Source: Escherichia phage JMPW2
Sequence record: NC_041873.1
Length of the DNA: 50,298 bases
Direction: 5' to 3' (one strand)
Made by a program: the position numbers and the translations under genes. The notes below the pieces were generated by a model. That model made no database searches. It was not told where the DNA came from and was given only the letters and a program-made list of their open reading frames with translations. Shown piece after piece: positions 1 to 16,100 of the stretch. Numbering within the stretch: the first letter of the stretch is position 1; each line of letters starts with the position of its first letter.

Positions 1-102
1 ATTGCATGGTGTGCAACAGTTGGTTGATTTGTTGCTGAGATTGCAATGATTGTGAGAGGGGGATCTAGTGTTGCCCGGTTCGCCTGGTAGTCATCTCCAT
101 TT

Positions 103-119
103 TTAGCAAAAAGTGCTAT
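103..119 (-). promoter_or_regulatory. palindromic box TAGCA-N5-TGCTA
   Basis: ttagcaaaaagtgctat (reverse orientation). Confidence 0.5.
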
Positions 120-143
120 CGATTACGATTACGATTGATTGCG
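120..143. repeat. tandem CGATTA hexamer repeats
   Basis: cgattacgattacgattgattgcg. Confidence 0.8.
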
Positions 144-179
144 TGTTAATCATTGTATATGATTTGCCTAAATCGCAAT

Positions 180-300
180 CGTATACAAAATTACGCCAAA
201 TTACGCCTTATAATATACATATAGATATATGTATATATATAATATATAAGTGTTTTTTTATTTATATATATAGATACTATTATTTGTAATATGGTTGTAT
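180..300. repeat. extremely AT-rich tract with TA-alternating palindrome
   Basis: tacatatagatatatgta inverted repeat and (TA)n runs. Confidence 0.8.
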
Positions 301-395
301 AGCGTGTCTTTTATGTTAATCGTTGGATGCTCTGATTATGATTCTCATGTTTATATATACAGTAGTTTTATCGGCGCACATTTATTTAGGGAAAT

Positions 396-422
396 CGATT
401 AACACGATTAACACGATTAACC
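396..422. repeat. three tandem 9-mers CGATTAACA
   Basis: cgattaacacgattaacacgattaacc. Confidence 0.9.
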
Positions 423-536
423 ACACTTAAAATCGCCCCGCAGACCTTGACACATGCGGGTCGTCGTGTAACACTACGATTAGAGACACGGTGTTACATG
501 TTAATCATGGTGTATATTGAAACTAAGGAGAAAGCT

Positions 537-1112
537 ATGAGTTCTTACCAGTCAGACGCAGTACAGGCAGCAATCAAGGCAGCTTACGAGAAGGCCGGAG
601 TAACGGTTGAGCAGCGACCGGAGGCAAAAGTGACCGATGTTATCCGGGCCGCCTGCGATCAGCTTTATGGTGATGGCGAGAATACCGAGTTCACATTCGA
701 CGCGAATAAGATGGCTGAGGCCGCAGCAAGAAAGTCGATGCCAGACGCTGACGAACATGATGTTGCCAAAGGCGCCGAGTCCTGGTTGCTCGGGAAGACG
801 GATGAGATTAACGAGAAGTTTAAATCCTCATTCATCACCCCGATCGTTTCTCGACACTTCTCCAAGATCGGCAAGTCGGTCAAGGTGAGCGTGACCATGA
901 ACGATGAAAAGTTGCGAGTCGTTACTATCTCAGTGAGTGACGAAGAAGTTCCGGTGAAGAAGCGCCGCAGCCGGAAAAAAGTCAGCCTGGCTGATTGTCT
1001 GGATTCGTTTGTTCCTGATGTTGATGATCTTGAGAAAGGCGACGTTACTGTAAGCACCGTGCGCGACCTGGTTCGCCAGATGAAAGCGCATATCGAAAAG
1101 TGTGGACTGTAA
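537..1112 (+). CDS. hypothetical early protein (basic KKRRSRKK patch)
   Basis: Track ORF 447..1112; internal ATG 537 has SD aaggag 7 nt upstream; no recognised domain. Confidence 0.5.
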   Translation: MSSYQSDAVQAAIKAAYEKAGVTVEQRPEAKVTDVIRAACDQLYGDGENTEFTFDANKMAEAAARKSMPDADEHDVAKGAESWLLGKTDEINEKFKSSFITPIVSRHFSKIGKSVKVSVTMNDEKLRVVTISVSDEEVPVKKRRSRKKVSLADCLDSFVPDVDDLEKGDVTVSTVRDLVRQMKAHIEKCGL

Positions 1113-1124
1113 GGAGAAGTAATT

Positions 1125-1451
1125 ATGTTTAATATCAAACCATTAACAGAAGCAGAGAAACAGGCTCAGGCCAAGCAAACCGAAAACATCCAAGTGATCG
1201 CTGATGCGCTGATTGGTAAGAGGTCAATCAAAATAAACCTCGACACTGTTGGTCAGTCATTTTTTACTAAAGGTTTGGATAAGTACGTTATAAATGTGAA
1301 GGCGATAGACCTGGTGGCGAGAATTCAAAAGCTAAACAATCAAAAGCTAAAGCTCATCAAGGTCGAAGGCAACATGTGCGAAATTGAGAACCTCAGCGCA
1401 CCAGACCCGAATAAGTGGGAAATCACCGATGTCGAGTTTATCGTAGAATAG
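1125..1451 (+). CDS. hypothetical protein
   Basis: Track ORF; SD aaggag upstream; stop TAG sits inside the palindromic box. Confidence 0.55.
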   Translation: MFNIKPLTEAEKQAQAKQTENIQVIADALIGKRSIKINLDTVGQSFFTKGLDKYVINVKAIDLVARIQKLNNQKLKLIKVEGNMCEIENLSAPDPNKWEITDVEFIVE

Positions 1452-1497
1452 CACTTTTTGTTAAAACCGGATCGGGGTATCTTGCTATAGTTACCCC
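1447..1497 (+). promoter_or_regulatory. palindromic box plus stem-loop with extended -10-like loop
   Basis: aatagcactttttgttaaaac; hairpin ggggta...tacccc with loop TGcTATAGT. Confidence 0.6.
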
Positions 1498-1529
1498 ATC
1501 AAAACGAGATACCAATCAGAGGAATCACC

Positions 1530-1760
1530 ATGTCAATCGTCAAGAACCAGCAAGCCATCGATTAAACCAATAACAACCGCTTTGCTATTTTCATCACATC
1601 GATAGGTCGCCGATTTGCAGTCAAAGCCGTTCCGGGTGGATACAAAACCTACATGGAAGATAAAGGAAAGTGGGTGTGGTGCGAAAACCTTGCAAACTTC
1701 CTAGTCTGGAATGCAGACCTCCAGGGCTTTGATGATATCAGCACCTTAATTGAGGAATAA
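1530..1760 (+). pseudogene. hypothetical gene with in-frame TAA at 1563..1565 (codon 12)
   Basis: ATG 1530 has the conserved leader CCAATCAGAGGAAT and the box/stem-loop module upstream; the frame is open for 64 more codons after the TAA to stop 1758..1760, ending 6 nt before the next gene. Confidence 0.4.
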
Positions 1761-1766
1761 ATAATT

Positions 1767-1994
1767 ATGCCACGTTACAATAAACAGACTAAACTCACCC
1801 GCGTAAACGGGCACATGATTCCGGCTGAATCCACTCACTACGCAATGGGCGCAAAGCACGGAGTCTATTTCAAGTGGCGCGGTCAATGGAACTTCACGGC
1901 GGTTAGTAATTTCTACATGCGCGTCCCAGGTATTGACCCGCAGACGGTCGTAGAGGACTCAATCGGCAACAACAAGATCGAGGTGCTAAAATGA
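1767..1994 (+). CDS. hypothetical protein
   Basis: Track ORF; SD gagga upstream. Confidence 0.55.
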   Translation: MPRYNKQTKLTRVNGHMIPAESTHYAMGAKHGVYFKWRGQWNFTAVSNFYMRVPGIDPQTVVEDSIGNNKIEVLK

Positions 1995-2101
1995 ACTTCA
2001 ATACAATTGCTTTATGGTCTGCCGTCTGGTTCTTCTGTATGGGTCATGTCATGGTTGGAATCGTAGTTATGCTGCTACTGTGTGCGGGAGCGTTCGAATG
2101 A
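1991..2101 (+). CDS. small hydrophobic membrane peptide (36 aa)
   Basis: Hand-translated MNFNTIALWSAVWFFCMGHVMVGIVVMLLLCAGAFE; ATGA overlap with upstream stop; below track size cutoff. Confidence 0.3.
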   Translation: MNFNTIALWSAVWFFCMGHVMVGIVVMLLLCAGAFE

Positions 2102-2271
2102 TGCGCATTCTGATTTGCATGATGGCGGCGGTCGCACTGGCTATCCTGGTAGTGTCCGGCTGCGGAGAGGCCAAAGAGCGATGCCATGAAACCGGAAACC
2201 AGGTGACTACTTTCGTGATGGTTGGCAACGTATTGCTACCAATCACATCAAATGAAATCACTTGCGAATAG
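2098..2271 (+). CDS. small putative lipoprotein
   Basis: Internal start MMRILICMMAAVALAILVVSGC gives signal peptide with lipobox-like VSGC; within track ORF 2014..2271. Confidence 0.4.
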   Translation: MMRILICMMAAVALAILVVSGCGEAKERCHETGNQVTTFVMVGNVLLPITSNEITCE

Positions 2272-2280
2272 GATGTTAAA

Positions 2281-2472
2281 ATGGCTGATTTTATGCACCA
2301 AATGATTGCAGTATTCAAAGGTAGTGATGACCAGGAGGTGAAAGAGTGCTTTACTGTAGACAAGCCTTATAGCGCATCGCTAACCAGCTTCGGGAATATC
2401 TCATTGCTTGATGATAACGGCGACCCCTGGGTATTCGACGAAGACACTGATTGCTTCGAAATTAAAGAATAG
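2281..2472 (+). CDS. hypothetical acidic protein
   Basis: Track ORF; stop TAG embedded in palindromic box. Confidence 0.5.
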   Translation: MADFMHQMIAVFKGSDDQEVKECFTVDKPYSASLTSFGNISLLDDNGDPWVFDEDTDCFEIKE

Positions 2473-2518
2473 CACTTTTTGTTAAAACTCAATATCGGGG
2501 TTGCGCTATAGTAACCCC
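2468..2518 (+). promoter_or_regulatory. palindromic box plus stem-loop
   Basis: aatagcactttttgttaaaac; hairpin ggggtt...aacccc with TATAGT. Confidence 0.6.
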
Positions 2519-2543
2519 ATCGACAACAAACGAGGACACTAAC

Positions 2544-3032
2544 ATGAAAATCAAATTGCTTTGCACTGGCGGTTACAAGGGCTTTACTCGCGACCTGGAA
2601 GCGGATCCTATCGTGATTGATGCGGTGAAGTGTGATGATAGCCTCGGCGGCTACCGCGTGAAGGTTGACGACCTGGTGAAAGCTGGCGTGTACGATCTGG
2701 GCTATGGACTTTCGGTTAGCCCGGTAGTTGGTCCGGCAGACTTCAACGAGAAGGATGGAACGATGTTCTTCTTCGAATGGGAAGTCCAGGCAAATCCTAA
2801 GCCGCGCAAGGTTCGTCTTCTCAGTAATGGCGGCTACCCGATGCGTCCAGGTTATGAGAATCGCACATTCCCGGTTATCGTTGACTTTGAAGAAATCACC
2901 GCACACTTAGCTTATATCAACGGTGAACAGCTTCATGCTGTTGGATTCGTGGGATGTATGAATCAAGAGGCGCTATGCTTCTTCCATTGTAAAGCCGAGC
3001 CGTTCGATATTGAGTGCGAGTTAGTATACTAA
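2544..3032 (+). CDS. hypothetical protein
   Basis: Track ORF; module and SD acgagga upstream. Confidence 0.6.
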   Translation: MKIKLLCTGGYKGFTRDLEADPIVIDAVKCDDSLGGYRVKVDDLVKAGVYDLGYGLSVSPVVGPADFNEKDGTMFFFEWEVQANPKPRKVRLLSNGGYPMRPGYENRTFPVIVDFEEITAHLAYINGEQLHAVGFVGCMNQEALCFFHCKAEPFDIECELVY

Positions 3033-3077
3033 GCACGAATTGTTAAAAGGGGATTTGGCCTGACTGGTATAATCCCC
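3030..3077 (+). promoter_or_regulatory. palindromic box plus stem-loop
   Basis: taagcacgaattgttaaaag; hairpin ggggatt...aatcccc with TGgTATAAT. Confidence 0.6.
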
Positions 3078-3103
3078 GCATAAACCACTAAGAGGAAAGC
3101 ATC

Positions 3104-3610
3104 ATGTTAAAATTAGAAGACGTAAAATTCCCGATTAAATTTATCAGCCTAGGTTGCGGTGAAATTACATTCACCAGTGAAGATAAAGGCAAGTGGGACA
3201 ATGATAAAATGTCTCAGCTTAAGTTGGATTGGTTTATCAATCGGCACAATGAAGTAAATCCTGAAAACTCAGCCAAGAAGGATTACCATTACATTATTAG
3301 TGGTAGTCAGGATGCGTACGAAAAGTATGATGGTTGGAAAACTGTTCGATCAATCTTCCACCCCGCAAAGCCAGAAATTAAACCGATGTTACAATGCGCT
3401 CAGATCGAGAACATTCCATTGAGCGCGACGCTAAGAGGAGTGCAGCTTGATGATAAATCCTGGCTTGAAATAACCGCCACGCCGAAAACTATTGAAGTGC
3501 ACGACGATATCGTCACTCTTCTATTGCATTACGGCAGCTTTAAGCACAAAGCGGTATCAGGTGAAATCAGCATTAAGCGCGGAACTCTTGTACGCTACGA
3601 GGTGAAATAA
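3104..3610 (+). CDS. hypothetical protein
   Basis: Track ORF; SD aagagga upstream. Confidence 0.6.
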   Translation: MLKLEDVKFPIKFISLGCGEITFTSEDKGKWDNDKMSQLKLDWFINRHNEVNPENSAKKDYHYIISGSQDAYEKYDGWKTVRSIFHPAKPEIKPMLQCAQIENIPLSATLRGVQLDDKSWLEITATPKTIEVHDDIVTLLLHYGSFKHKAVSGEISIKRGTLVRYEVK

Positions 3611-3759
3611 TGGCTGCATGGGTCTTGATTATCTTGATGAGCACCGGGCCGGATCACGTATACATGGAAAGTCGGCAATCATGCAACGAGGCCAGGGCTG
3701 TAATCGCAGAGAATAAGCCGTTCGGATATGAAGTAAAAACGATGTGCGTTAAACGATAG
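3610..3759 (+). CDS. small membrane protein (49 aa)
   Basis: Hand-translated MAAWVLIILMSTGPDHVYMESRQSCNEARAVIAENKPFGYEVKTMCVKR; TAATG overlap with upstream gene; stop TAG inside box. Confidence 0.4.
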   Translation: MAAWVLIILMSTGPDHVYMESRQSCNEARAVIAENKPFGYEVKTMCVKR

Positions 3760-3817
3760 CATGAATTGCTAAACCTTCCGCGAGGCCATTTGTTATAGTG
3801 GCCTTATTGAAGCGCGG
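3756..3817 (+). promoter_or_regulatory. palindromic box plus stem-loop
   Basis: atagcatgaattgctaaacc; hairpin aggcca...ggcct with TGtTATAGT. Confidence 0.6.
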
Positions 3818-3839
3818 CAACCAATCAGAGGAATCAGCT

Positions 3840-4048
3840 ATGGCTACACGACTCACTCAGTAGCAGATTTACGACAAGGCCTCACGCCTTCGTGAATCAC
3901 TTCGAGGTCTGACACCAAACGACCGCATTGAGATTATCGGGCACGCATTGCACGAACTCGCGTCTCAAGACGTAATCTATCATTCATGCGGAAATAAATT
4001 CTGGAACGTGACATTCGAGGTAAAGAAAGATGAGCAAAACTCATAAGT
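3840..4048 (+). pseudogene. hypothetical gene with in-frame TAG at 3861..3863 (codon 8)
   Basis: ATG 3840 preceded by box, stem-loop and CCAATCAGAGGAAT leader; after the TAG the frame stays open 61 codons with no ATG, ending 18 nt into the next gene. Confidence 0.4.
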
Positions 4049-4317
4049 TAAAAATCGCCCCTGTACATTTCATTGGTGTAATGAACGGAACCAAAACGGC
4101 AGAGTTCCGCATCAATGACCGAAACTTCCAATCTGGCGATATCCTGGAGCTATGCGAGTTCGATCGAGATGAGTTTACCGGGTGGGAAGTTCACGCCAGG
4201 GTATCCGATGTTACCGATGTGACGCCATACATCGATCGCGGGTATGACGAGCAAGAATGCGACTTCACGCAATACGTGATGTTATCAATCAAGCCTTACA
4301 GGAAGGTTAGACCATGA
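4030..4317 (+). CDS. ASCH/PUA-like (DUF3850-like) protein
   Basis: N-terminus HKLKIAPVHF...GTKTAEFRINDRNFQSGDIL resembles the ASCH-type pattern; from memory, not searched. Confidence 0.45.
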   Translation: MSKTHKLKIAPVHFIGVMNGTKTAEFRINDRNFQSGDILELCEFDRDEFTGWEVHARVSDVTDVTPYIDRGYDEQECDFTQYVMLSIKPYRKVRP

Positions 4318-4952
4318 AATTTGAATGTGTGCTTAGTAACGGATCTGGATTTAAGTACGGCAAAATCTACGAAGGCGCTCGCGTCAATTGCAACAGCTTC
4401 GTTATCACGGATGAGCGCGGTAGAAATGTTAACGTTGTCCGGCGTCACGAATACCAGGAAATTTTCCTGCCGTACGGCAATAGTTCAAAATACATCTTCC
4501 ATCGAATCGTTGATGGTGTTAAATTTAAAGACGTAATCGAAGCAATCAACCAACTTCATAATAAAGAGGTAAAATTTATGAAATTCGAATGCATCAGCGA
4601 TAACACCAAAAAATTTACTGTTGGCAAAATTTACGATGTTCCCTCTGAGCACGCTAAGCACACGGCTGTAATTACCGACGACACGGGCCGCCACCGCATT
4701 GCAACCGTAACGCACAACGGTGAAGGTCTTCGCTGGAATAGCGGCGGCACTAAGTTCGCAACGTTCGGCAAGAAGCGCAAGCGCACTTTCTGCGTCAAGG
4801 GCAATGTTGCGGCGAACAAGACCCACAACGACAAGGCGTCACAAGTTGACCGCAAGCCAGCATTGAAGTTTGAAGAGAAAGCGGATTTATCCGGCCTGGC
4901 TGTTGCGCTTGTTCTCCTGGTAGCTTCGATTTCGCTGATGTTCATCATGTAA
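4314..4952 (+). CDS. two-repeat small-beta-domain protein with C-terminal TM helix
   Basis: Internal duplication MKFECVLSNGSGFKYGKIYEG / MKFECISDNTKKFTVGKIYDV; hydrophobic C-terminus LAVALVLLVASISLMFIM. Confidence 0.6.
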   Translation: MKFECVLSNGSGFKYGKIYEGARVNCNSFVITDERGRNVNVVRRHEYQEIFLPYGNSSKYIFHRIVDGVKFKDVIEAINQLHNKEVKFMKFECISDNTKKFTVGKIYDVPSEHAKHTAVITDDTGRHRIATVTHNGEGLRWNSGGTKFATFGKKRKRTFCVKGNVAANKTHNDKASQVDRKPALKFEEKADLSGLAVALVLLVASISLMFIM

Positions 4953-4958
4953 TTTTAA

Positions 4959-4993
4959 CGGGGAATCGGATCTGAACGGTTCCCCTTTCTTTT
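4959..4993 (+). terminator. rho-independent terminator
   Basis: GC stem ggggaa...ttcccc followed by tttcttttgg. Confidence 0.5.
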
Positions 4994-5100
4994 GGAGAAA
5001 ACACTATGCCAGACTTTTCTAACTGGAATAACGAGCCGCCATCATTTCAGGAGTTGCTATTTTGCCTCCTGGTCCTGACATTATCTCTTAAGGGTGTTTT

Positions 5101-5319
5101 ATGGCTACTATCATAACCGCAGAAGATGCGGCGCGTGACGCAGTGGAAGGAATGCGCCCAAATACCTCCAGAATCGCCCACTACTACAAGTTTGAGGTGT
5201 CGGCAGTGCAATTGGTCCACGAAATTTTAAGGCTCCCACAAGTCGATTCAGCGCGAGTAGTGACGTGCTTAAAAAATTATTTTTGCATCACTATTAAAAC
5301 GAATAGCACGAATTGCTAA
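5101..5319 (+). CDS. hypothetical protein
   Basis: Track ORF; reads through the box to a TAA. Confidence 0.4.
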   Translation: MATIITAEDAARDAVEGMRPNTSRIAHYYKFEVSAVQLVHEILRLPQVDSARVVTCLKNYFCITIKTNSTNC

Positions 5320-5352
5320 AACCTATCAAGGGGAATGCGCTATGATTCCCCT
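5303..5352 (+). promoter_or_regulatory. palindromic box plus stem-loop
   Basis: aatagcacgaattgctaaaac; hairpin aggggaat...attcccct with TATGAT. Confidence 0.6.
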
Positions 5353-5376
5353 ACACCAACAAACGAGGAAGCACGA

Positions 5377-5823
5377 ATGAAACACCTAATCTGTATTGAA
5401 GCGCCTAACGACGAGTACACTCTGCATGGCTTGGGTATGTTCAAAGGTCACTACATTACAGCTAAGATTCAAGATGACAAGCTGGATGATGGCGATCTGG
5501 AAATCACATCGAAAGAGATTAATCCGTACATCATGCAGAATCTTGGCAATAACGAATATATGGCCTACGGCTGCAATGCGGTGTATAAGCACATTAAGAT
5601 CCGCAAGCGCGTCGTGCGTGCATTCAAGAAGATTGCAATGAAGTACTGGAAGATGAGCAAGAAAGATGCCGGACGCTGGGCGCGCAACGTTGCAGATTCA
5701 TACTTCTATCGTAACGGCGAATCCTGCTACTTCCTGATCGATGAACTTATGGAAAACTACGGTGGCGACTTCAGCCAGGGTAGCTTTGATGACTGGGTCA
5801 ACTATGAGATCAGTTGCTGGTAA
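5377..5823 (+). CDS. hypothetical protein
   Basis: Internal ATG of track ORF 5335..5823 with SD acgaggaag; module upstream. Confidence 0.55.
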   Translation: MKHLICIEAPNDEYTLHGLGMFKGHYITAKIQDDKLDDGDLEITSKEINPYIMQNLGNNEYMAYGCNAVYKHIKIRKRVVRAFKKIAMKYWKMSKKDAGRWARNVADSYFYRNGESCYFLIDELMENYGGDFSQGSFDDWVNYEISCW

Positions 5824-5872
5824 TAGCACGAATTGCTAAAACTTGCTCAAGGGAATTTGTTAGAATGCCCTT
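5822..5872 (+). promoter_or_regulatory. palindromic box plus stem-loop
   Basis: aatagcacgaattgctaaaac; hairpin aaggg...ccctt with TGtTAGAAT. Confidence 0.6.
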
Positions 5873-5906
5873 CGTTGAGTTAAGCAACCAATCAGAGGAA
5901 TAAATC

Positions 5907-6437
5907 ATGGATAAAATCACAATTTGGGGCCAGACAATCAACCTGTTTCTCGGCACGCGCCGCGTGGCAATCTTTGACTTTGACGGGACACTTAGCGATG
6001 GATCTGGTCGACTTCACCTGCTGCCGACAAAGGATTTGCACTTGACTGAAAGCTGGTCTGAGTTTAACCGAGCGGCAATATTTGACGATCCTATTCAGAG
6101 CACTATTGAGGTGATGAACTCATTATTTGCTGCGGGTTATCACGTAATTATCTTAACAGGACGTAGTGATGAGGTGCGTCACGAATCAAAGTTATGGTTA
6201 AAGCGCCACGGTGCGCGATATGATTACCTGATTATGAGGCCGCATACCGACAACCGCAAAGACACGGTAATGAAAGAAGAGGCAGTGCGCGCTATCGGCA
6301 TTGATAACATTCTTGCGGCTTGGGATGACTCAGTGAATATAATAAAAAAATTCAGAGATCTAGGGATAACCACATATCAGGTTTGTGAATATGCCTGTGA
6401 TAGTCGAGAGGATTTAAATAGTCATGGTGTCGATTGA
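5907..6437 (+). CDS. HAD-family phosphatase (nucleotidase or polynucleotide 3'-phosphatase-like)
   Basis: HAD motif I FDFDGTL near N-terminus; conserved leader upstream. Confidence 0.6.
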   Translation: MDKITIWGQTINLFLGTRRVAIFDFDGTLSDGSGRLHLLPTKDLHLTESWSEFNRAAIFDDPIQSTIEVMNSLFAAGYHVIILTGRSDEVRHESKLWLKRHGARYDYLIMRPHTDNRKDTVMKEEAVRAIGIDNILAAWDDSVNIIKKFRDLGITTYQVCEYACDSREDLNSHGVD

Positions 6438-6918
6438 TAACAAATCAATGGTAAGAGAGTTATTTACTTATTCTGACGGCGTTCTGTATTGGAAGGCCAA
6501 ATCATCTAAATACAGTAGAGCTAAAATAGGAGGCGCGGCAGGAAGCAAGGATAAAGACGGATACATAATAATCAGAGTAAGAAACGAAACTAGAGGCGCT
6601 CACAGGCTTGTATGGATATACCATAATGGCAAGATACCTGATGGAATGGAGGTAGACCATATGGATGGAGACATAACAAACAATAGAATAGAAAACCTAA
6701 GATTGGTAACGAGAACCATAAATAACAGGAATCAAAAAAAGAGATCTGATAACACAACCGGAGTATCCGGTGTAACTTTCATGAAAGATAGAGGAAAGTA
6801 TAGGGCGCAAGTTAGAAACAAGAGACTCGGGCAGTTCGACACAATAGAAGAGGCCGCCAAAGCAGTAAAGGATGAGCGGGATAGATTAGGTTTATTCACA
6901 AAAAGACACGGGGTGTAA
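6424..6918 (+). CDS. HNH homing endonuclease with AP2-like domain
   Basis: Motif EVDHMDGDITNNRIENLRLVT plus TTGVSGVTFMKDRGKYRAQV; paralogous to 42263..42745 and 46320..46859. Confidence 0.8.
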   Translation: MVSIDNKSMVRELFTYSDGVLYWKAKSSKYSRAKIGGAAGSKDKDGYIIIRVRNETRGAHRLVWIYHNGKIPDGMEVDHMDGDITNNRIENLRLVTRTINNRNQKKRSDNTTGVSGVTFMKDRGKYRAQVRNKRLGQFDTIEEAAKAVKDERDRLGLFTKRHGV

Positions 6919-6920
6919 AC

Positions 6921-7493
6921 ATGAAAACAGCTATCATTTTAAACGGCGCACCTGGTGCGGGAAAGGACACTATCGGATGCATCCTGGCTGACACTTACGA
7001 TCACGTGGCGCTACGCAGCTTTAAGGCTCCGATGTTTGAGATTGCCCGAGCAATATTGGGTGAGGCTAATTTCGAATATTTCATGTTCTTGTATGAGGAC
7101 CGTCGCTATAAAGAAGAGCCAGCATCAATCCTGAACGGTAAAAGCCCGCGCCAGTTTATGATCTGGATTAGCGAGGAGGTCATCAAGCCGCAGTTCGGAA
7201 ATCGCTTCTTCGGTATGCGAGCGGAAAGCAAGGTGAAAGAGTCTCACTCCCTTTCGGTATTTACTGACGGTGGATTCAAAGACGAGATCTTGCAGATGAT
7301 TGAAGGTGATATCCAGGTAAAGCTATGTCGAATCCATCGCAACGGTTGCAACTTTGACAACGACAGCCGAGACTATATCTATCTTGACGATATGATCGGG
7401 GTCAACGGTTATCAGGAGTGCGACTTCTTTTCTGTCGAAGGCCATCCAGAAATTACCGCTCAGCACATAGCCGCCACGTTCATCAATAAATAG
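6921..7493 (+). CDS. P-loop kinase (T4 gp1-like dNMP kinase or polynucleotide kinase)
   Basis: Walker A GAPGAGKDT at N-terminus; LNGKSPRQ resembles T4 dNMP kinase. Confidence 0.6.
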   Translation: MKTAIILNGAPGAGKDTIGCILADTYDHVALRSFKAPMFEIARAILGEANFEYFMFLYEDRRYKEEPASILNGKSPRQFMIWISEEVIKPQFGNRFFGMRAESKVKESHSLSVFTDGGFKDEILQMIEGDIQVKLCRIHRNGCNFDNDSRDYIYLDDMIGVNGYQECDFFSVEGHPEITAQHIAATFINK

Positions 7494-7542
7494 CACGAAT
7501 TGCTAAAACGTCGATGGGGTGATTTGATATAGTTACCTCATC
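7489..7542 (+). promoter_or_regulatory. palindromic box plus stem-loop
   Basis: aatagcacgaattgctaaaac; hairpin gatggggt...acctcatc with TGaTATAGT. Confidence 0.6.
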
Positions 7543-7565
7543 GACAACGAAGAGAGAAAATCGAA

Positions 7566-7775
7566 ATGATGGTATCAACTGATAAGTTTTTCACCTGCAC
7601 TAAAACCTCTGAAGTATTCGAGCTTGTTCATACTGATAATGGTGATTTCATGCATGACGGTTGCGACGTTTTTATCGAAGTGAAAGAAAGCGACTATGAT
7701 GACGGAGTTTATTATAACCCGGCAGTGAACACTCAGTTCTTTACACCGATCGAAGAAGAAGGAGAAGAGGCATGA
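7566..7775 (+). CDS. hypothetical acidic protein
   Basis: Track ORF; module and SD upstream. Confidence 0.5.
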   Translation: MMVSTDKFFTCTKTSEVFELVHTDNGDFMHDGCDVFIEVKESDYDDGVYYNPAVNTQFFTPIEEEGEEA

Positions 7776-8116
7776 TTACGATTAACTTGTCAGATAAACA
7801 AGCGCGCGAACTCCTGGATACGATTGGTGAACAGCTTCACGTAAAAGGTGCTGCGGCTGAACTACTTAACCAGATCGAAAGGCAGCTTACCCCAGCATCA
7901 ACCAACCAAGCTGATTTTGCAGCCTGGAAAAGCGAGCGAATCCTGCCAAATATCATCAAGGCATGGAAGCGCAAGCATAAAAAAGAAATCAATGTTGATG
8001 ATTTATTTACCGATGAATTAAGTCCTTCAAAGGTTGCTCAATATCAGTTGCGATACATGGAGTCGGTTTGCAATCAGGTTTTAGGTGTTAATTTTTCATT
8101 TGGGAGAGGTAAATAA
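7772..8116 (+). CDS. hypothetical protein
   Basis: Track ORF; ATGA overlap with upstream gene. Confidence 0.5.
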   Translation: MITINLSDKQARELLDTIGEQLHVKGAAAELLNQIERQLTPASTNQADFAAWKSERILPNIIKAWKRKHKKEINVDDLFTDELSPSKVAQYQLRYMESVCNQVLGVNFSFGRGK

Positions 8117-8346
8117 TGTTCGGTTTAAGTGAGGCAGAATGGAACGTAGTAAAGCGCGCGGCGAAGGAATTAAATAAATTCGTTAGCGGCATGAAGAAGG
8201 AAGATCGTAAAAACGACAAGATCATGATTGACGTGATTTCTACTCACCACAAAAAGGTCGAGCTACTCATCGACCGATACAAGTTTGTCTGGACTGCCGG
8301 GTATATTGCCGGGCGCGTAGGTAACAAAGAAGGGGATTACGAATAA
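8116..8346 (+). CDS. hypothetical protein
   Basis: Track ORF; TAATG overlap. Confidence 0.5.
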   Translation: MFGLSEAEWNVVKRAAKELNKFVSGMKKEDRKNDKIMIDVISTHHKKVELLIDRYKFVWTAGYIAGRVGNKEGDYE

Positions 8347-8549
8347 TGGCTAATTTACCGAAGAAAGGCGATCAGGTTCGATGCTTCACGTCACGCAATA
8401 GCGATGCTTTCTCAGCGGGGTGCTTGTACGATGTTGAAAAGGTAAGTAAAGCAAATAGACTCGTATATGTGTACGGTGACGATGGAAACCTTCATGAAAT
8501 TGATTACCCGCAGGATATGACTAAGGGGCAATTCGAAACTAATGATTGA
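8346..8549 (+). CDS. small-beta-domain family protein
   Basis: Track ORF; shares the K-x-C...G-x-x-Y...D-D-G pattern with 4314, 42818 and 46856 genes. Confidence 0.5.
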   Translation: MANLPKKGDQVRCFTSRNSDAFSAGCLYDVEKVSKANRLVYVYGDDGNLHEIDYPQDMTKGQFETND

Positions 8550-8710
8550 CCTACGTCTCTGAGCGGTGATAGTATTAATCCCGTAGACAAACGAGGCGCA
8601 ATGAAGCGCAACGCGTGAGACGATTCTCACACTTCCAGCTAACAAGCTCGGTTGCATAGTGGTTAAGCAACGCCGCAGACCCGTAAGCGGCAACAATTCA
8701 AGAGGATTGC

Positions 8711-8875
8711 ATGATGCAAAACACCAAAGACGAATCAGTAAAAATTGAAATTAAAGTAACTCGCAACGGTGAAACCACTCGTTATAAAAAACGATTAAAT
8801 CCGGGAGAGGCTGTTATTGGTCGAATTGCTGGCGTTATGATTAAGGCGCAGGAAGATGAAGCGATTCAAGGTTAA
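8711..8875 (+). CDS. hypothetical small protein (54 aa)
   Basis: Hand-translated MMQNTKDESVKIEIKVTRNGETTRYKK...; SD aagagga upstream. Confidence 0.4.
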   Translation: MMQNTKDESVKIEIKVTRNGETTRYKKRLNPGEAVIGRIAGVMIKAQEDEAIQG

Positions 8876-9041
8876 ATTAATTATTCGAAAGATGGGGATG
8901 TTTTGCCAGTCGTGCAAACAATCTTTCGAAACAGAATTATCTGCAACCAGTCAGGCAGAAGCCATCACGAAAGCAAAAAAACTTTCAGGCGCTAACCTTG
9001 ACACTCACAAAATAAACATTGAATTAATCAAGGAGATTTAA
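8856..9041 (+). CDS. hypothetical small protein
   Basis: Track ORF; start uncertain (internal ATGs at 8892/8898). Confidence 0.35.
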   Translation: MKRFKVKLIIRKMGMFCQSCKQSFETELSATSQAEAITKAKKLSGANLDTHKINIELIKEI

Positions 9042-9042
9042 C

Positions 9043-9270
9043 ATGACCATTTTTTTATTGATTATCTCTGGTATCGTTATTTTTGGTGCTGGTTTGTTTG
9101 CTGGCTTCGCACTTGTTGCGGCAGCAATTGCGATGGACGCTAAGGATAAAACTGGTGTATGGCTGACCTACTCACCTAAGAAGGACCAATGGGAGATGAC
9201 TGGCGACCTTGCTCACTGCTACTCTAAAGCTCAGACCCACCCTAAAGGAATTAAGCGACTATTGTCGTGA
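9043..9270 (+). CDS. small membrane protein
   Basis: N-terminal hydrophobic helix IFLLIISGIVIFGAGLFAGFALVAAAIA. Confidence 0.5.
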   Translation: MTIFLLIISGIVIFGAGLFAGFALVAAAIAMDAKDKTGVWLTYSPKKDQWEMTGDLAHCYSKAQTHPKGIKRLLS

Positions 9271-9280
9271 TAAACACTAA

Positions 9281-9301
9281 CCCGCTTCGGCGGGTTTTTT
9301 T
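9281..9301 (+). terminator. rho-independent terminator
   Basis: cccgcttcggcggg hairpin plus T7 run. Confidence 0.7.
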
Positions 9302-9319
9302 ATGCCTGCAATATGGTAA

Positions 9320-9339
9320 AATAGCACTAAATGTTAAAC
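9320..9339 (+). promoter_or_regulatory. palindromic box variant upstream of terminase small subunit
   Basis: aatagcactaaatgttaaac. Confidence 0.45.
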
Positions 9340-9354
9340 AAAGAGGATGGATTT

Positions 9355-9879
9355 ATGAGTGAACCTAAGAACGCTCCCGTAGTCCAGGGAGGTAATTTCA
9401 AAGAGCTATACAAGAAAAAGTTTGGCACTGTACTCGCGAAAAACCGGGCGATGACGCCAGAGCAACTATTCGATCTGTCAGTGAAGTATTTCGAATGGGC
9501 CGAGGACAACGCAATCAAGGCGTCAGAATCAGCCAGCTTTCAGGGTGGCGTTTATGAATCGCTTGTCCATAAGCCGCGCGTCTTCACCTGGACCGGATAC
9601 CGACTATTCATAGGAGCAAGCGAGGCCGCAATCATTAAGTGGAAGCGAGAGGAAGAATACAGTGAGGTTATGGAGTTCGTGGAATCCGTAATCAACGAGC
9701 AAAAATTTCAGCTTGCCGCCAACGGTGTTATTAATGCCTCCTTTATCGGTAAGGATCTCGGAATCGATAAGCCAGCATCAATCAATATCGAAAACTCGTC
9801 AGCTTCCGCATCGACAGTAGTTGCCACTACTGAGGATGCAATGAAAGAGGCAGTAAACAGCATTCTTGATATGCTTTAA
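9355..9879 (+). CDS. terminase small subunit (by position)
   Basis: Immediately upstream of large terminase; ATG 9355 with SD aagagga; track start 9331 lies inside the box. Confidence 0.5.
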   Translation: MSEPKNAPVVQGGNFKELYKKKFGTVLAKNRAMTPEQLFDLSVKYFEWAEDNAIKASESASFQGGVYESLVHKPRVFTWTGYRLFIGASEAAIIKWKREEEYSEVMEFVESVINEQKFQLAANGVINASFIGKDLGIDKPASINIENSSASASTVVATTEDAMKEAVNSILDML

Positions 9880-9918
9880 CGTTAGGGGCGCGCGAGCGCC
9901 CACATGGGAGACTTAATC

Positions 9919-11487
9919 ATGATTCAATGGGAAGACCTTAACGCAACGCAGAAGTTAGCGATCAAGAAAATGAGCGAGGCCAATTTCGAAAAAATGATTC
10001 GGATCTGGTTCCAGCTTATGCAGGCGCAGCAGTTCCAGCCTAACTGGCATCACCTTTACCTATGTCACGAAGTGGAGGAAATTATTGCAGGGCGGCGAGG
10101 GAATACAATCTTTAACGTCACACCAGGTTCCGGTAAAACTGAAGTGTTCTCAATTCACCTTCCGGTGTACGCAATGCTCAAGTGTAAGAAGGTGCGAAAC
10201 CTTAACGTGTCGTTTGCTGACAGCCTGGTTAAGCGTAACAGTAAGCGCGTCCGTGAGATTATCAGCAGCAACGAATTTCAAGAGTTATGGCCTTGCAAGT
10301 TCGGCACATCGAAAGATGAGGAGATGCAGGTTCTTAACGAAGATGGAAAGGTTTGGTTTGAGTTGATATCCGCAGCGGCTGGCGGTCGTATTACTGGTTC
10401 GCGTGGTGGCTACATGACGCCGGGATTCTCAGGTATGGTAATGCTCGACGATATCGACAAGCCTGATGATATGTTCTCAAAGGTTAAGCGTGAGCGTACG
10501 CACATGCTATTGAAAAACACCATCCGTTCCCGTCGTATGCATAACGAGACGCCTATTATTGCAATTCAGCAACGACTACATGCTCAGGATTCAACCTGGT
10601 TCATGATGAATGGCGGGATGGGCATTGAGTTTGACCAAATCTCAATACCGGCGCTGGTGACGGAAGAATACGGAAAGACACTTCCTGATTGGTTGCAGCC
10701 TTACTTTGAGCGTGATGTTTTATCGTCTGAGTATGTAGAATTGGATGGCGTTAAGCATTACTCTTTTTGGCCCAGCAAGGAAAGCGTTCACGACCTGTTG
10801 GCGTTACGAGAAGCAGATCAGTATACCTTTGATTCTCAGTATCAGCAGAAACCGATCGCGCTGGGTGGCTCCGTGTTTAACTCGGAGTGGTGGACTTATT
10901 ACGGCAGCAGTCTTGATGCTGACGAGCCAGATCCGGGTAAATATGATTACCGATTCATCACTGCCGATACCGCTCAGAAGACAGGCGAGCTAAACGACTA
11001 CACGGTATTTTGTTTGTGGGGCAAGAAGAATGATAAGGTTTACTTTATCGACGGCATTCGCGGAAAGTGGGAAGCGCCGGATATGGAGAGGCAATTTACA
11101 GCTTTCGTCAATCAGGCATGGAGGCACAATAAATCAATGGGGGTACTTCGTAAAATCTATGTGGAAGATAAGGCGAGCGGTACTGGCTTAATCCAGAACC
11201 TAAGGAAAAAGACTCCGATATCCATCACTCCATTGCAGCGTAACAAAGACAAAGTTACCCGAGCTATGGATGCTCAGCCAGTTATTAAAGCCGGGCGTGT
11301 GGTTCTGCCAGAAGAGCACCCTATGCTTGCTGAAATTATCGCTGAGCACAGCGCCTTTACTTACGATGACACCCACCCGCATGATGATATCGTCGATAAC
11401 TTCATGGATGCGGCGAACATCGAATTGCTGACCATTGATGATCCTATCGAGAGAATGAAGCGACTCGCTGGGATGGTTAAGCGGTAA
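9919..11487 (+). CDS. terminase large subunit
   Basis: About 520 aa; Walker-like TPGSGKT; nuclease-like acidic C-terminal half; ATG 9919 with SD gggag. Confidence 0.8.
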   Translation: MIQWEDLNATQKLAIKKMSEANFEKMIRIWFQLMQAQQFQPNWHHLYLCHEVEEIIAGRRGNTIFNVTPGSGKTEVFSIHLPVYAMLKCKKVRNLNVSFADSLVKRNSKRVREIISSNEFQELWPCKFGTSKDEEMQVLNEDGKVWFELISAAAGGRITGSRGGYMTPGFSGMVMLDDIDKPDDMFSKVKRERTHMLLKNTIRSRRMHNETPIIAIQQRLHAQDSTWFMMNGGMGIEFDQISIPALVTEEYGKTLPDWLQPYFERDVLSSEYVELDGVKHYSFWPSKESVHDLLALREADQYTFDSQYQQKPIALGGSVFNSEWWTYYGSSLDADEPDPGKYDYRFITADTAQKTGELNDYTVFCLWGKKNDKVYFIDGIRGKWEAPDMERQFTAFVNQAWRHNKSMGVLRKIYVEDKASGTGLIQNLRKKTPISITPLQRNKDKVTRAMDAQPVIKAGRVVLPEEHPMLAEIIAEHSAFTYDDTHPHDDIVDNFMDAANIELLTIDDPIERMKRLAGMVKR

Positions 11488-11541
11488 TAAATGAGATATA
11501 ATCAGGGCTGTCAATTGACGGCCCTTTTTATTGGAGGAAAC

Positions 11542-12825
11542 ATGAAAATTGTTAAGCATGATGGATATAACGATATCTTTAACGGCGGCGCGGACGGATC
11601 GCCTAAGCCATTCTTTATGTCTGATGCATCATATCACGTCGGTTCTTTCTACAACGACAACGCAACCGCGAAGCGAATTGTGGATGTTATCCCGGAAGAG
11701 ATGGTGACGGCTGGTTTTAAAATGTCAGGCGTTAAGGATGAAAAAGAGTTCAAGTCTTTATGGGATAGCTACAAACTTGATTCAAGTCTGGTGGATCTTC
11801 TTTGTTGGGCGAGACTTTACGGTGGCGCGGCTATGGTGGCAATCATCAACGACAACCGGATGTTAACCAGTCAGGCAAGGCCTGGAGCTAAACTTGAAGG
11901 CGTCCGAGTTTACGATCGATTCGCTATCACTGTTGAAAAGCGAGTCACCAATGCAAGATCCCCTCGCTATGGTGAGCCTGAAATTTACAAGGTATCACCT
12001 GGCGACAATATGCAGACGTATCTGATTCATCACTCAAGAGTCTTTATTGCTGATGGTGAGCGAGTAACGCAACAGGCAAGAAAGCAGAATCAAGGATGGG
12101 GAGCTTCGGTATTGAACAAGTCACTGATTGATGCAATCTGTGATTATGATTACTGTGAATCTCTTGCTACTCAGATCTTGCGACGTAAGCAACAGGCTGT
12201 ATGGAAGGTCAAAGGTCTTGCCGAAATGTGTGATGATGATGATGCTCAGTATGCCGCGCGCCTGCGACTTGCTCAGGTTGATGATAACTCCGGCGTAGGT
12301 CGTGCGATCGGTATCGATGCTGAGACTGAGGAATATGACGTTCTCAACTCTGATATCAGCGGAGTTCCTGAGTTCTTATCAAGCAAGATGGACCGCATCG
12401 TCTCACTATCCGGGATTCATGAGATTATCATTAAGAATAAGAACGTAGGCGGCGTGTCAGCGAGTCAAAACACAGCGCTTGAGACTTTCTATAAGCTAGT
12501 CGACCGCAAGCGTGAGGAAGACTACAGGCCGCTTCTTGAGTTCTTGTTGCCGTTCATTGTTGATGAGGAAGAGTGGTCGATCGAGTTTGAACCTTTGTCT
12601 GTTCCGAGTAAGAAAGAGGAATCGGAGATCACGAAGAATAACGTTGAGTCAGTCACGAAGGCTATCACTGAGCAAATCATAGATCTGGAAGAAGCTCGCG
12701 ACACGCTGCGATCCATTGCCCCTGAGTTCAAACTCAAGGATGGTAATAACATCAACATTCGCGAACCGGAAGAAACAACCGAACCGGAACCGGGATTATG
12801 GGAGAAGTTAGAATATGAAAATTAA
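11542..12825 (+). CDS. portal protein
   Basis: About 430 aa directly after terminase; acidic C-terminus; SD ggagga. Confidence 0.75.
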   Translation: MKIVKHDGYNDIFNGGADGSPKPFFMSDASYHVGSFYNDNATAKRIVDVIPEEMVTAGFKMSGVKDEKEFKSLWDSYKLDSSLVDLLCWARLYGGAAMVAIINDNRMLTSQARPGAKLEGVRVYDRFAITVEKRVTNARSPRYGEPEIYKVSPGDNMQTYLIHHSRVFIADGERVTQQARKQNQGWGASVLNKSLIDAICDYDYCESLATQILRRKQQAVWKVKGLAEMCDDDDAQYAARLRLAQVDDNSGVGRAIGIDAETEEYDVLNSDISGVPEFLSSKMDRIVSLSGIHEIIIKNKNVGGVSASQNTALETFYKLVDRKREEDYRPLLEFLLPFIVDEEEWSIEFEPLSVPSKKEESEITKNNVESVTKAITEQIIDLEEARDTLRSIAPEFKLKDGNNINIREPEETTEPEPGLWEKLEYEN

Positions 12826-13576
12826 TGGCGTTGCAACACAGTGGCGCTATCCTGAAATGAGCGAGCGCGCAATGTCGCGCTCCCTACAGGATGTTGCAGC
12901 CAAACTAACTGAAAAAATGCGTGACGAATTAAAACCGATGAAATTTGACGCTACCGACGAAGAGATAGATCAGACAGAAAGGTCATTGCTTGATTACGTT
13001 GAATCACTCATCACTCCGATTATTGGTTCTCTATCATCCGTTGCGCTCACGATCTATAAATTCAACTCTAAGCAGTGGCTGCGTATCGCTCGCAATGCTG
13101 GAGGTAAGAAGAATCAAGCCGTTATGCTACTTGCCCTGATTGGTCCTACCGCTGCTGAAAGCTGGTACTCAGGACAATATAATCTGTGGCGATCGCAGGT
13201 GACTACTTCTATCAGGAAATTTGCCGCCAACATGGTTACTGATTTCACTGATAAACTTCGTGCGGCATCCGGTCAGGGTAAAAGCAAGGATTTTGTTGTT
13301 GAACTTGCTAAGGAGCGATTTGGTATTTACCGTAGCTGGGCCAAAAATAGAGCGTCGGGAATTGTCGGAGCCTGGAACAGTAGACTGATGCGGCAGCGCA
13401 TAAAAGACGCTGGTGTATCTTACTATTTCTGGCGCGGGGTGATGGATTTACGCGAACGTGAAAAACATGTAAGATGGGAAGGTAAGCGCATAGCGGTAGA
13501 TTCCGATCACGTATTCCCGGGTGAAGAATACAACTGCCGCTGTTGGGCTGTTCCAGACTTTTCTACAGGAGATTAA
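12815..13576 (+). CDS. head morphogenesis / minor head protein
   Basis: Position after portal; overlapping start. Confidence 0.55.
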   Translation: MKINGVATQWRYPEMSERAMSRSLQDVAAKLTEKMRDELKPMKFDATDEEIDQTERSLLDYVESLITPIIGSLSSVALTIYKFNSKQWLRIARNAGGKKNQAVMLLALIGPTAAESWYSGQYNLWRSQVTTSIRKFAANMVTDFTDKLRAASGQGKSKDFVVELAKERFGIYRSWAKNRASGIVGAWNSRLMRQRIKDAGVSYYFWRGVMDLREREKHVRWEGKRIAVDSDHVFPGEEYNCRCWAVPDFSTGD

Positions 13577-13578
13577 AA

Positions 13579-14691: not shown

Positions 14692-14702
14692 GGGGAAATA
14701 TC

Positions 14703-15179: not shown

Positions 15180-15194
15180 TTAGCGTTTAATATG

Positions 15195-15227
15195 GGGACT
15201 ATCTTTTTTTTGGATAGTCCTTTTTTT
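15195..15227 (+). terminator. rho-independent terminator
   Basis: ggactatc / gatagtcc stem flanked by T runs. Confidence 0.6.
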
Positions 15228-15241
15228 ATGGAGAAATCATT

Positions 15242-16009: not shown

Positions 16010-16029
16010 CATAAAAACACTTTGACGCT

Positions 16030-16046: not shown

Positions 16047-16053
16047 TATTGAA

Positions 16054-16080: not shown

Positions 16081-16100
16081 TTAACTACGGAGAAGTAATA

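Follow-up and report, generated by a model that had tools for sequence, protein, structure and literature searches.

What is the short box, TAGCA-N3-5-TTGYTA, that recurs between genes in the DNA of Escherichia phage JMPW2, and which protein reads it? We analyzed one strand of this DNA at its full length of 50,298 nucleotides (nt; NC_041873.1; hereafter the window). A first-pass annotation, made from the letters alone, had described the box, a -10-like hexamer at a fixed distance and a hairpin as one composite intergenic module. Here we report that the module appears to join a known class of promoters, the class II marbox promoters of the host, and to add to it a layer of covarying RNA hairpin.

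To define the box, we counted exact matches to TAGCA-N3-5-TTGYTA and found 18 in the window against 0.19 expected. A fuzzy scan, together with alignment on the box, gave ~27 copies, of which ~20 are complete modules. The scan recovered every copy reported previously, including the half-copies (23730 and 25978), and one further degenerate copy at 32352. Thus, the claim of a composite module at every copy holds for ~20 of them, while seven boxes (9322, 23730, 25978, 35138, 16045, 118 and, in its plus-strand reading, 19807) are not composite modules.

The box had also been described as an inverted repeat that looked like the site of a dimer, and alignment did not support this part of the annotation. 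Conservation is asymmetric: the left side reads AATA-GCAC and the right side YTAAA(A). The flanking bases A(-3), T(-2) and A(-1) are 86–91% conserved in the six genomes or segments probed with the literature 15-mer only (the window, TLS, Rtp and Rogue1, plus 14 kb each of Vc1 and NJS1). Neither these flanks nor the sixth base (C) have a conserved counterpart on the other side. Additionally, TTGTTA replaces the palindromic form in 36 of 86 sites. With conservation asymmetric and the TTGTTA copies breaking the TAGCA/TGCTA pairing, a symmetric dimer palindrome is not the best reading of the box. It agrees instead with the marbox, 5'-GCAHWWWWTGYYAAA-3', an asymmetric site bound by monomers of MarA, SoxS or Rob (PMC6900184; PMC12052159) and also given as gcannwwntgnnaaa (PMC12052159). 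Perfect matches to GCAHWWWWTGYYAAA number 11 in the window, and 22 sites match when up to one mismatch is allowed, where 1.5 would be expected; the phage version of the site is GCACTTTTTGTTAAA. The conserved flanks agree with a longer, 20-bp form of the marbox consensus, AYnGCAC..., reportedly given by Martin and colleagues in 1999. In the phage modules an A site, GCAC, and a B site, YTAAA, lie seven bases apart, which is the layout described for the soxbox, with A site GCAC and B site CAAA (PMC9638938), and for the RamA site at micF. We therefore read the box as an asymmetric marbox in preference to a dimer palindrome, and the pseudo-palindrome TAGCA/TGCTA is apparently misleading.

The element itself is already in the literature. 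The 2024 re-annotation of phage TLS describes a 21-nt intergenic direct repeat, aaATAGCACnnnTTGnTAAAA, in 18 copies that point along transcription ~76 nt before start codons and that also occur in T1, Rtp and Rogue1 (PMC11447400). The same text reports only three sigma70-like promoters in TLS and leaves the function of the repeat open, suggesting stoperator, enhancer or UP-like roles (PMC11447400). The box is this same element. Our literature searches returned no transcriptome or mapped start sites for T1 or the Drexlerviridae and no link between marboxes and phages. Positions 1–8000 of the window are ~93% identical to phage T1, and its gene order is that of T1, TLS, Rtp and Rogue1; we therefore take the window to be a Tunavirus-like member of the Drexlerviridae, that is, a T1-like phage. 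As a search of related phages showed, the module is found family-wide, in T1, TLS, Rtp, Rogue1, the Webervirus NJS1 and Vibrio phage Vc1. Both Klebsiella phage NJS1 and Vc1 (NC_054898.2, a Jhansiroadvirus recorded on Vibrio cholerae) carry marbox modules with unchanged spacing.

To analyze the geometry of the module, we pooled 314 unique modules, drawn from T1, TLS, Rtp, Rogue1 and those IMG/VR contigs that hold several boxes; transcription starts throughout are predictions based on the conserved CA and the -10 hexamer. In ~20 of the 27 window copies a TAnnnT hexamer lies exactly 22 nt after TTGYTA. The best -10 match falls at offset 22 in 240 of the 314 pooled modules and at offsets 21–23 in 265, so that the fixed 22-nt gap of the first-pass annotation is upheld. 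A TG at -15/-14, previously said to be usual, was found in about half: 9 of the 20 window modules with a script-placed -10 and 111 of 265 overall (42%). The hexamers are TATAGT, TATTAT, CATAAT and TATAAT. Downstream lie a six-nucleotide C-rich discriminator and a CA start, the seventh nucleotide past the hexamer being A in 210 of 240 modules, with C before that A in 177 of 240. The pooled consensus reads aAATAGCACtttTTGcTAAAAc-N8-gg..at.tGgTATAaTtacCcCAtcgAAAc.AAa.aagga. A fixed -10, TG and CA start mark the module as a putative sigma70 promoter whose start is fixed. In the consensus, no -35 hexamer is conserved 17 nt before the -10, and plain sigma70 hexamer pairs occur at chance level in positions 1–20000 (35 found versus 32.4 expected). 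Nor does TTGYTA itself serve as a sigma70 -35, since its spacer is 22 nt and a TTGACA-like hexamer takes 16–18 nt.

This arrangement is that of class II mar/sox/rob promoters. In these, a forward marbox lies over the -35 position, with sites clustering at -41 (PMC10268841; PMC12052159), the -35 hexamer is not recognizable and the -10 is canonical (PMC10268841); at micF, the RamA and SoxS sites are at -41 and -41.5 (for SoxS and the soxbox, PMC9638938). In the ~20 window modules the forward marbox 15-mer, GCAC distal and AAA proximal, is 20 nt from the -10, and its center is ~-40.5 from the predicted start. For comparison, the E. coli micF sequence that we fetched reads GCACTGAATGTCAAA, 20 nt, TAGAAT, 7 nt, +1, and a phage module reads GCACTTTTTGTTAAA, 20 nt, TATAGT, 6 nt, A. 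Because the gap to the -10 is identical to that of micF, TTGYTA is the middle of a marbox and not a -35 with an over-long spacer. All four published class II features are present in the phage modules, the start being predicted, and at the level of sequence the module appears to have everything asked of a class II marbox promoter. We are highly confident in reading the module as an activator-dependent sigma70 promoter with its box at about -41. The earlier statement that it is not a plain host promoter thus has to be qualified: with a 22-nt spacer TTGYTA is no -35, but the architecture is that of a known host class, the class II mar/sox/rob promoters.

The second layer of the module is the hairpin, and here the proposal that its stems covary was borne out. 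Real modules fold at a mean of -12.3 kcal/mol versus -8.1 for chimeras, in which the 5' half of one module is joined to another module's 3' half (p ~1e-24). In the dominant stem register offset i pairs with offset 43-i. In 37 modules that share one register, changes on both sides occurred at 9 of 10 pairs, and 82 compensatory cells were counted versus 27.5 ± 5 after shuffling, with none of 500 shuffles as high; slid controls reached at most 0.19 against the 0.565 observed. These 37 modules were picked for having a stem in register, which inflates the percent paired and affects the covariation measures less. Covariation was tested on paralogous modules, since the orthologous groups have few members and hardly vary. 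Stems are varied (GGGGTA/TACCCC, AAGGCCA/TGGCCTT, GAGTGCA/TGCACTC, GGAGACA/TGTCTCC and many more), and Rfam 15 gave no gathering-score match anywhere in the window. Internal mismatches were 50 G·T versus 8 A·C (30 versus 6 when one per cluster is counted, p = 7e-5), the sense strand folded more stably than the antisense strand in 130 modules and less stably in 64, and GNRA tetraloops are common. From the excess of G·T over A·C mismatches, the greater sense-strand stability and the GNRA loops, it follows that the sense strand is the target of selection on the hairpin, RNA being the simplest form. With the box at a fixed distance from the -10 and a covarying stem, the two overlapping layers of selection proposed earlier, on a protein site and on a secondary structure, are both supported.

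The position of the hairpin indicates which RNA carries it. Its 5' arm lies at offsets 3–19 past the box and its 3' arm at 25–36, and the end of the 3' arm (33–37) coincides with the predicted start. The hairpin would therefore be absent from transcripts started at the module and be found only in RNA arriving from upstream. We classed hairpin position in 291 modules: 119 hairpins enclose the -10, 76 lie wholly between marbox and -10, 34 lie elsewhere, and 62 modules have none. The hairpin had been proposed as a promoter element presenting the -10 in its loop; because its position varies while the promoter elements are constant, it is not part of the promoter mechanism. Rather, the arms are written into the sequence-free spacer and discriminator, and therefore the -10 ends up in the loop. 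Hairpins are stronger where a co-directional open reading frame (ORF) ends at the box (-12.2 versus -9.1 kcal/mol, p = 0.019) and weak at the first modules of divergent units. The link to the upstream gene is close: in all 62 modules with an upstream gene (five genomes) that gene stops inside the box or no more than 5 nt away from it, and in 28 of the 62 the stop codon is the box's own TAG, in keeping with the stop codons noticed inside the box at first pass. Because the hairpin ends at the predicted start and is stronger after a co-directional gene, we place it at the 3' end of RNA that comes from upstream or reads through, most likely as a 3'-end element of the upstream cistron acting in protection or partial termination. 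The 119 enclosing hairpins do not have the form of rho-independent terminators, and a minority of the upstream type do: a T-rich tail (at least 4 T) follows 35 of the 76, the -10 region often serving as the tail.

The complete and partial modules of the window are as follows. They serve early, replication and some late genes, as proposed at first pass.

1448–1500, plus strand: complete module; marbox 1448–1467 (ATAGCACTTTTTGTTAAAAC); TGcTATAGT, hexamer 1486–1491; predicted start A 1498; hairpin 1470–1500.
1449–1451, plus strand: TAG stop of the ORF 1125–1451, inside the marbox of the preceding module.
2469–2519, plus strand: complete module; perfect marbox 2469–2488; TATAGT 2507–2512; predicted A 2519; hairpin GGGGTT/AACCCC 2497–2518.
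3030–3080, plus strand: complete module; marbox 3030–3049 with one mismatch; TGgTATAAT, hexamer 3068–3073; predicted A 3080; hairpin GGGGATT/AATCCCC 3049–3077.
3756–3817, plus strand: complete module; marbox 3756–3775; TGtTATAGT, hexamer 3794–3799; predicted A 3806; hairpin 3778–3817, then leader CAACCAATCAGAGGA.
5303–5353, plus strand: complete module; marbox 5303–5322; TATGAT 5341–5346; predicted A 5353; hairpin GGGGAAT/ATTCCCC 5329–5352.
5823–5884, plus strand: complete module; marbox 5823–5842; TGtTAGAAT, hexamer 5861–5866; predicted start near 5873; hairpin 5842–5884; leader 5887–5898 (ACCAATCAGAGG).
7490–7545, plus strand: complete module; marbox 7490–7509; TGaTATAGT, hexamer 7528–7533; predicted A 7540; hairpin 7510–7545 with 15 pairs, G·U pairs included, at -23 kcal/mol.
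9321–9340, plus strand: forward perfect marbox without a downstream -10; TGgTAAAAT before it and the small-terminase ribosome-binding site directly after.
23729–23748, plus strand: degenerate box, then an intrinsic terminator.
25977–25996, plus strand: degenerate box directly ahead of the tail-fibre ATG.
32351–32402, plus strand: module with a degenerate marbox (ACGGCACAAATAGCTAAACA); TGtTATAAT, hexamer 32388–32393 at 21 nt; hairpin 32379–32402; leader ACCAATCAGGAG.
36170–36230, minus strand: module after the regulator gene stop and upstream of the primase gene; marbox 36211–36230; TAACAT 36187–36192.
39188–39238, plus strand: complete module; perfect marbox; TGgCATTAT, hexamer 39226–39231; hairpin 39208–39227 upstream, abutting the -10.
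40211–40261, plus strand: complete module; marbox 40211–40230; TATAGT 40249–40254; GAAA-tetraloop hairpin ACCCGGCgaaaGTCGGGT between marbox and -10.
42191–42250, plus strand: complete module; marbox 42191–42210; TATTAT 42229–42234; GAAA-tetraloop hairpin upstream of the -10, with a T-rich tail.
42745–42795, plus strand: module with a weak marbox; CATAGT 42783–42788; hairpin 42764–42782.
46338–50213, minus strand: six right-arm modules, each with its -10 hexamer 22–23 nt past TTGYTA; marbox and -10 at 50194–50213 and 50169–74; 49427–49446 and 49403–08; ~48962–48982 (spacer one nt short) and ~48940–45; 47848–47867 and 47823–28; 47333–47352 and 47309–14; 46374–46393 and 46350–55.

The T1 record annotates the counterpart of the 42191–42250 hairpin as a rho-independent terminator. 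At 36170–36230, TAACAT sits inside a true terminator hairpin with a T-tract (36170–36210), and the predicted start falls in its 3' arm.

Not every marbox faces forward, and several of the remaining sites lie at or near sigma70-type promoters.

100–163, plus-strand promoter: reversed perfect marbox 100–119, centered at ~109, upstream of TTGATT-N17-TATGAT at 135–163.
16022–16076, plus strand: late promoter of the major capsid gene, TTGACG-N16-TATTAT (16022–16049), with a terminator hairpin (16051–16076) directly after.
19789–19808, minus strand: reversed perfect marbox (15-mer 19791–19805) directly ahead of the tape-measure chaperone leader CAACCAATCAGGAG, with a minus-strand TAGGAT at 22 nt.
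35137–35188, minus strand: tail-fibre promoter, sigma70-type, TTGCAA (35188–35183)-N17-TAAAAT (35165–35160).
36679–36746, both strands: divergent control region; forward perfect marbox 36679–36698 and -10 TATTAT 36717–36722 for the helicase gene (plus strand).
36746–36718, minus strand: sigma70-type promoter of the Cro-like regulator gene 36214–36666, TTGAAT (36746–36741)-N17-TATAAT (36723–36718).

At the capsid promoter a reversed perfect marbox (16029–16043) fills the spacer and supplies the TG, an arrangement conserved in T1 and TLS. At the tail-fibre promoter a reversed marbox (35140–35154) begins 5 nt past the -10 and is conserved in T1 and Rtp, and at the regulator gene a reversed marbox (36682–36696) lies downstream of the predicted start in all four subfamilies examined. 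These reversed sites in or just past the capsid, fibre and regulator core promoters suggest that the same factor represses there. Host precedent exists, in that MarA and SoxS repress pbpG directly via a predicted marbox in its regulatory region (PMC12052159). By comparison, the marbox centered at ~109 lies at about -61 from the implied start, which is class I geometry. In Rtp forward modules drive late genes too, and therefore a simple rule of early activation and late repression is not established. Other host promoters repressed by MarA-type proteins with a marbox inside the core promoter are those of rob, purA and hdeA.

The -10 hexamers of the helicase module and the regulator promoter overlap face to face, and this is kept in T1, TLS, Rtp and Rogue1; this stretch (36717–36746) looks like a directional switch. 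The capsid-promoter hairpin, a real terminator that follows the logic of the module hairpins, lies directly past the -10, so transcripts begun there would lack its 5' arm. At both 16051–16076 and 36170–36210 the predicted start is inside a terminator stem, such that read-through RNA can terminate while locally started RNA cannot fold the hairpin.

How, then, might the module work? Each complete module would be a class II Mar/Sox/Rob-type promoter for host sigma70 RNA polymerase, in which a near-consensus forward marbox (GCAC, YTAAA) centered ~40.5 bp before the start replaces the -35 hexamer. A monomeric activator with a pair of helix-turn-helix (HTH) motifs, bound to the marbox, would recruit polymerase via sigma region 4 together with the alpha C-terminal domain, following the solved case of micF. 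The variable promoter positions, spacer and discriminator, would double as the two arms of a hairpin present only in the RNA of the upstream gene, where it most likely protects or defines the 3' end; the minority with T-rich tails are probable true terminators. A gene would thus end inside the marbox, its RNA would be capped by the hairpin, and the next transcript would begin directly after. As a whole, a class II marbox promoter with a host-type activator and an overlaid RNA hairpin is the best explanation, and one that we judge probable, if not strongly so.

A search for the activator within the phage yielded no candidate of the MarA type. With MarA and SoxS as queries, phmmer gave a best E-value of 0.9 over all ORFs of the window, and no AraC-type HTH came up when the conserved small proteins were scanned against Pfam and PHROGs; a phage-encoded MarA was therefore set aside. 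By inspection of sequence, a gp10-like protein resembles a single winged helix and a gp07-like protein appears beta-rich. Since the window yielded no MarA-like protein, the host would most simply supply the activator, as Rob (constitutive), MarA or SoxS, or as RamA in Klebsiella, and we have moderate confidence that host MarA, SoxS or Rob are the activators. The wider proposition, that the Drexlerviridae (T1, TLS, Rtp, Rogue1 and the weberviruses) drive most of their transcription from class II marboxes, hijacking the stress and antibiotic-resistance activators MarA/SoxS/Rob(RamA) of the host instead of using a sigma factor, polymerase or activator of their own, is one we put forward tentatively, as possible but short of probable.

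Several points weigh against this explanation. Host marboxes vary far more than these boxes do, which could point to a dedicated phage protein, and a phage recorded on Vibrio cholerae carries the boxes too. In unstressed cells MarA and SoxS are scarce and Rob is largely sequestered, and T1 is not known to depend on rob, marA or soxS. The phmmer search used hand-entered MarA and SoxS sequences. As for the hairpin, G·T tolerance would fit a hairpin in single-stranded non-template DNA as well, the 119 enclosing hairpins lack a U-tract (mean 0.65 T in 8 nt), and a strong inverted repeat (36697–36734) stands without any co-directional upstream gene.

The uniformity of the boxes and their presence in the Vibrio phage would both suit a phage-encoded protein that reads the box in the same class II geometry, the likeness to a marbox being convergence or mimicry. 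Its best candidate is the Cro-like regulator 36214–36666 (minus strand), the HTH protein that had also been named at first pass. The regulator is family-wide (823 Drexlerviridae records), has an invariant N-terminal motif, and has a sigma70-type promoter of its own with a reversed box past the predicted start in all four subfamilies examined, a typical autoregulatory layout. Its model, however, is a single Cro-type HTH (AlphaFold predicted local distance difference test, pLDDT, 82; best PDB fold matches Xfaso1 and N15 Cro), and proteins of this type bind palindromes as dimers, whereas the conservation of the box is asymmetric. Across 29 homologues the recognition helix is hypervariable while the box is invariant, which together with the single HTH weakens the regulator as reader of the box. 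The scans of the phage yielded no AraC/XylS-type protein, a perfect marbox match combined with exact micF spacing would be a large coincidence, and we consider a phage-encoded reader unlikely, though worth keeping in view. The invariant N-terminal motif, IDKRxxNGNNGTRRGKDKKxR, is basic and predicted by the model to be disordered; it may contact something besides variable DNA, for example polymerase or the box. Separately, 20 records named 'Campylobacter phage' carry this Drexlerviridae regulator gene, an unexpected host label that may reflect contamination or mislabelling.

Could the boxes down-regulate or insulate rather than activate, as repressor, roadblock, 'stoperator', enhancer or UP-like sites? 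Roles of this kind were proposed by the TLS authors (PMC11447400), and boxes do lie on or after core promoters, where repressors typically sit, at 16029–43, 35140–54, 36682–96 (minus strand) and 9321–40. Yet most boxes stand at a fixed 20–22 nt from a -10, in a single orientation and without a -35, which is the geometry of an activator; polymerase stalled at a roadblock would stop before the upstream stop codon, which sits in the box; and UP elements are A/T tracts without an invariant GCAC and TG. We regard such roles as improbable for the module. Still less likely is a DNA cruciform or non-template hairpin that exposes the -10 in its loop and aids opening without a -35, as in phage N4. The -10 is in the loop in 119 of 291 modules, G·T tolerance fits a sense-strand DNA hairpin, and the repeat at 36697–36734 surrounds two overlapping -10s, but the promoter elements are still there in the 76 modules whose hairpin is wholly upstream and in the 62 that have none. 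Loops of 8–14 nt with 6–9 bp stems extrude poorly, and the N4 type relies on a virion or phage RNA polymerase and has a 3-nt loop in place of these 8–14 nt and no such variable position. GNRA tetraloops are a mark of RNA, hairpins are stronger where a gene lies upstream, and no RNA polymerase or sigma gene is reported for TLS (PMC11447400). Least credible of all, to the point that we give it almost no weight, is that the modules are plain intrinsic terminators with an incidental TATAAT-like loop and box. Although WebGeSTer-based annotation labels such hairpins terminators in SA30RD, T-rich tails follow 35 of the 76 upstream-type hairpins, and 36170–36210 and 23745–23790 are genuine terminators, the 119 enclosing hairpins are almost without T past the stem, and termination would account neither for TGnTATAAT at its fixed offset nor for the CA start or the invariance of the box.

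Four further identities for the box or its surroundings were tried and rejected or set aside. A sigma54 promoter (TGGCAC-N5-TTGCW) does not fit, as TAGCAC-N3-TTGC gives AG-N8-GC, which is 2 nt short and has AG where GG is needed; TGnTATAAT would also be unexplained. The TAGCA/TGCTA arms fit an Lrp site (YAGHAWATTWTDCTR), but this is a weaker, symmetric fit that leaves the asymmetric flanks and the class II geometry unexplained. For a lambda CII-type direct repeat, TTGC-N6-TTGC, the spacing is one nt off and the position is wrong, and for a sigma32 -10 the CCCCAT in the discriminator is at the wrong distance from any TTGAAA-like element.

Several observations concern the sequences next to the modules. 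The leader ACCAATCAGRRG occurs 16 times against 0.6 expected, so that the conserved leader of the first-pass annotation is real. Leader sites include 1511, 3820, 5887, 19811, 32405, 47281 and 50146, two perfect copies of ACCAATCAGRRG are antisense within coding regions (24939–24950 and 37312–37323, both minus strand), and the ACCAATCA part of the leader stands upstream of a Shine-Dalgarno sequence. Two early genes directly 3' of modules carry in-frame stops close to the 5' end: the homologue of T1 orf75 (1530–1760) has TCA changed to TAA at 1563–1565, codon 12, and the ORF from 3840 (3840–4031) has TAG at 3861–3863, codon 8. In both, the remaining frame is intact, and they could be natural nonsense alleles, pseudogenes or sequencing errors. 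At the left end (120–145, 200–300 and 395–425) tandem repeats gattac-gattac-gattg, three copies of cgattaacac and an A+T-rich TATATA-type stretch lie between the reversed marbox and the first gene and may be a packaging or replication signal.

The reading of the module as a class II marbox promoter makes the organization of transcription in T1-like phages an experimentally testable question. If it is correct, phage gene expression would be tied to the mar/sox/rob state of the host, and at late promoters the reversed marboxes would let this one factor act as a timing switch. Should host Rob, MarA, SoxS or RamA be the activators, this would be, as far as we know, the first phage family with a promoter set in a host stress regulon. 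Overexpression of MarA or RamA is a frequent cause of multidrug resistance in clinical E. coli and Klebsiella, and weberviruses are widely used candidates against Klebsiella; with host activators, resistant hosts might express weberviruses better. The hairpin written on free promoter positions would be a clear example of two codes in ~50 nt. Because hairpin and promoter are overlaid, annotation pipelines are inconsistent in labelling terminators and promoters: the T1 GenBank record leaves the box sites unannotated, and another T1-like record labels the hairpins terminators.

How does the module compare with known systems? The available part of the TLS paper covers the 21-nt repeat only (PMC11447400), and the fixed -10, the start, the hairpin covariation and the marbox identity are added here. 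Like class II promoters of the micF type, the phage modules have a forward marbox at about -41, a 20-nt gap to the -10, no -35 and a sigma70-type core. Unlike host class II marbox promoters, they belong to a virulent phage, number ~20 copies per 50-kb genome and are near-perfect in consensus where host sites are degenerate; they are also fused to an upstream stop codon and an RNA hairpin, and activator binding to them is only predicted. The T4 middle promoters (MotA box plus AsiA) and the Mu Mor/C promoters likewise use host sigma70 polymerase, with no -35, an activator box and a good -10, and the phage modules share this layout of an activator box in place of the -35. In T4 and Mu, however, the activators are phage-encoded, the MotA box being at -30 and the Mor/C dyads at -43.5, whereas the box described here is a host regulon site for which no phage homologue of the cognate activator was detected. 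As in MarA-repressed promoters, the reversed phage marboxes stand in the spacer of, or just past, sigma70-type promoters, and repression by them is only inferred. Lastly, the hairpin resembles 3' stabilizing stem-loops and terminators in being GC-rich, covarying and shortly past a stop codon, often with a GNRA loop and in a subset with a U-rich tail. It differs from them in that most copies are without a U-tract, the promoter that follows supplies the arms from its spacer and discriminator, and its -10 forms the loop.

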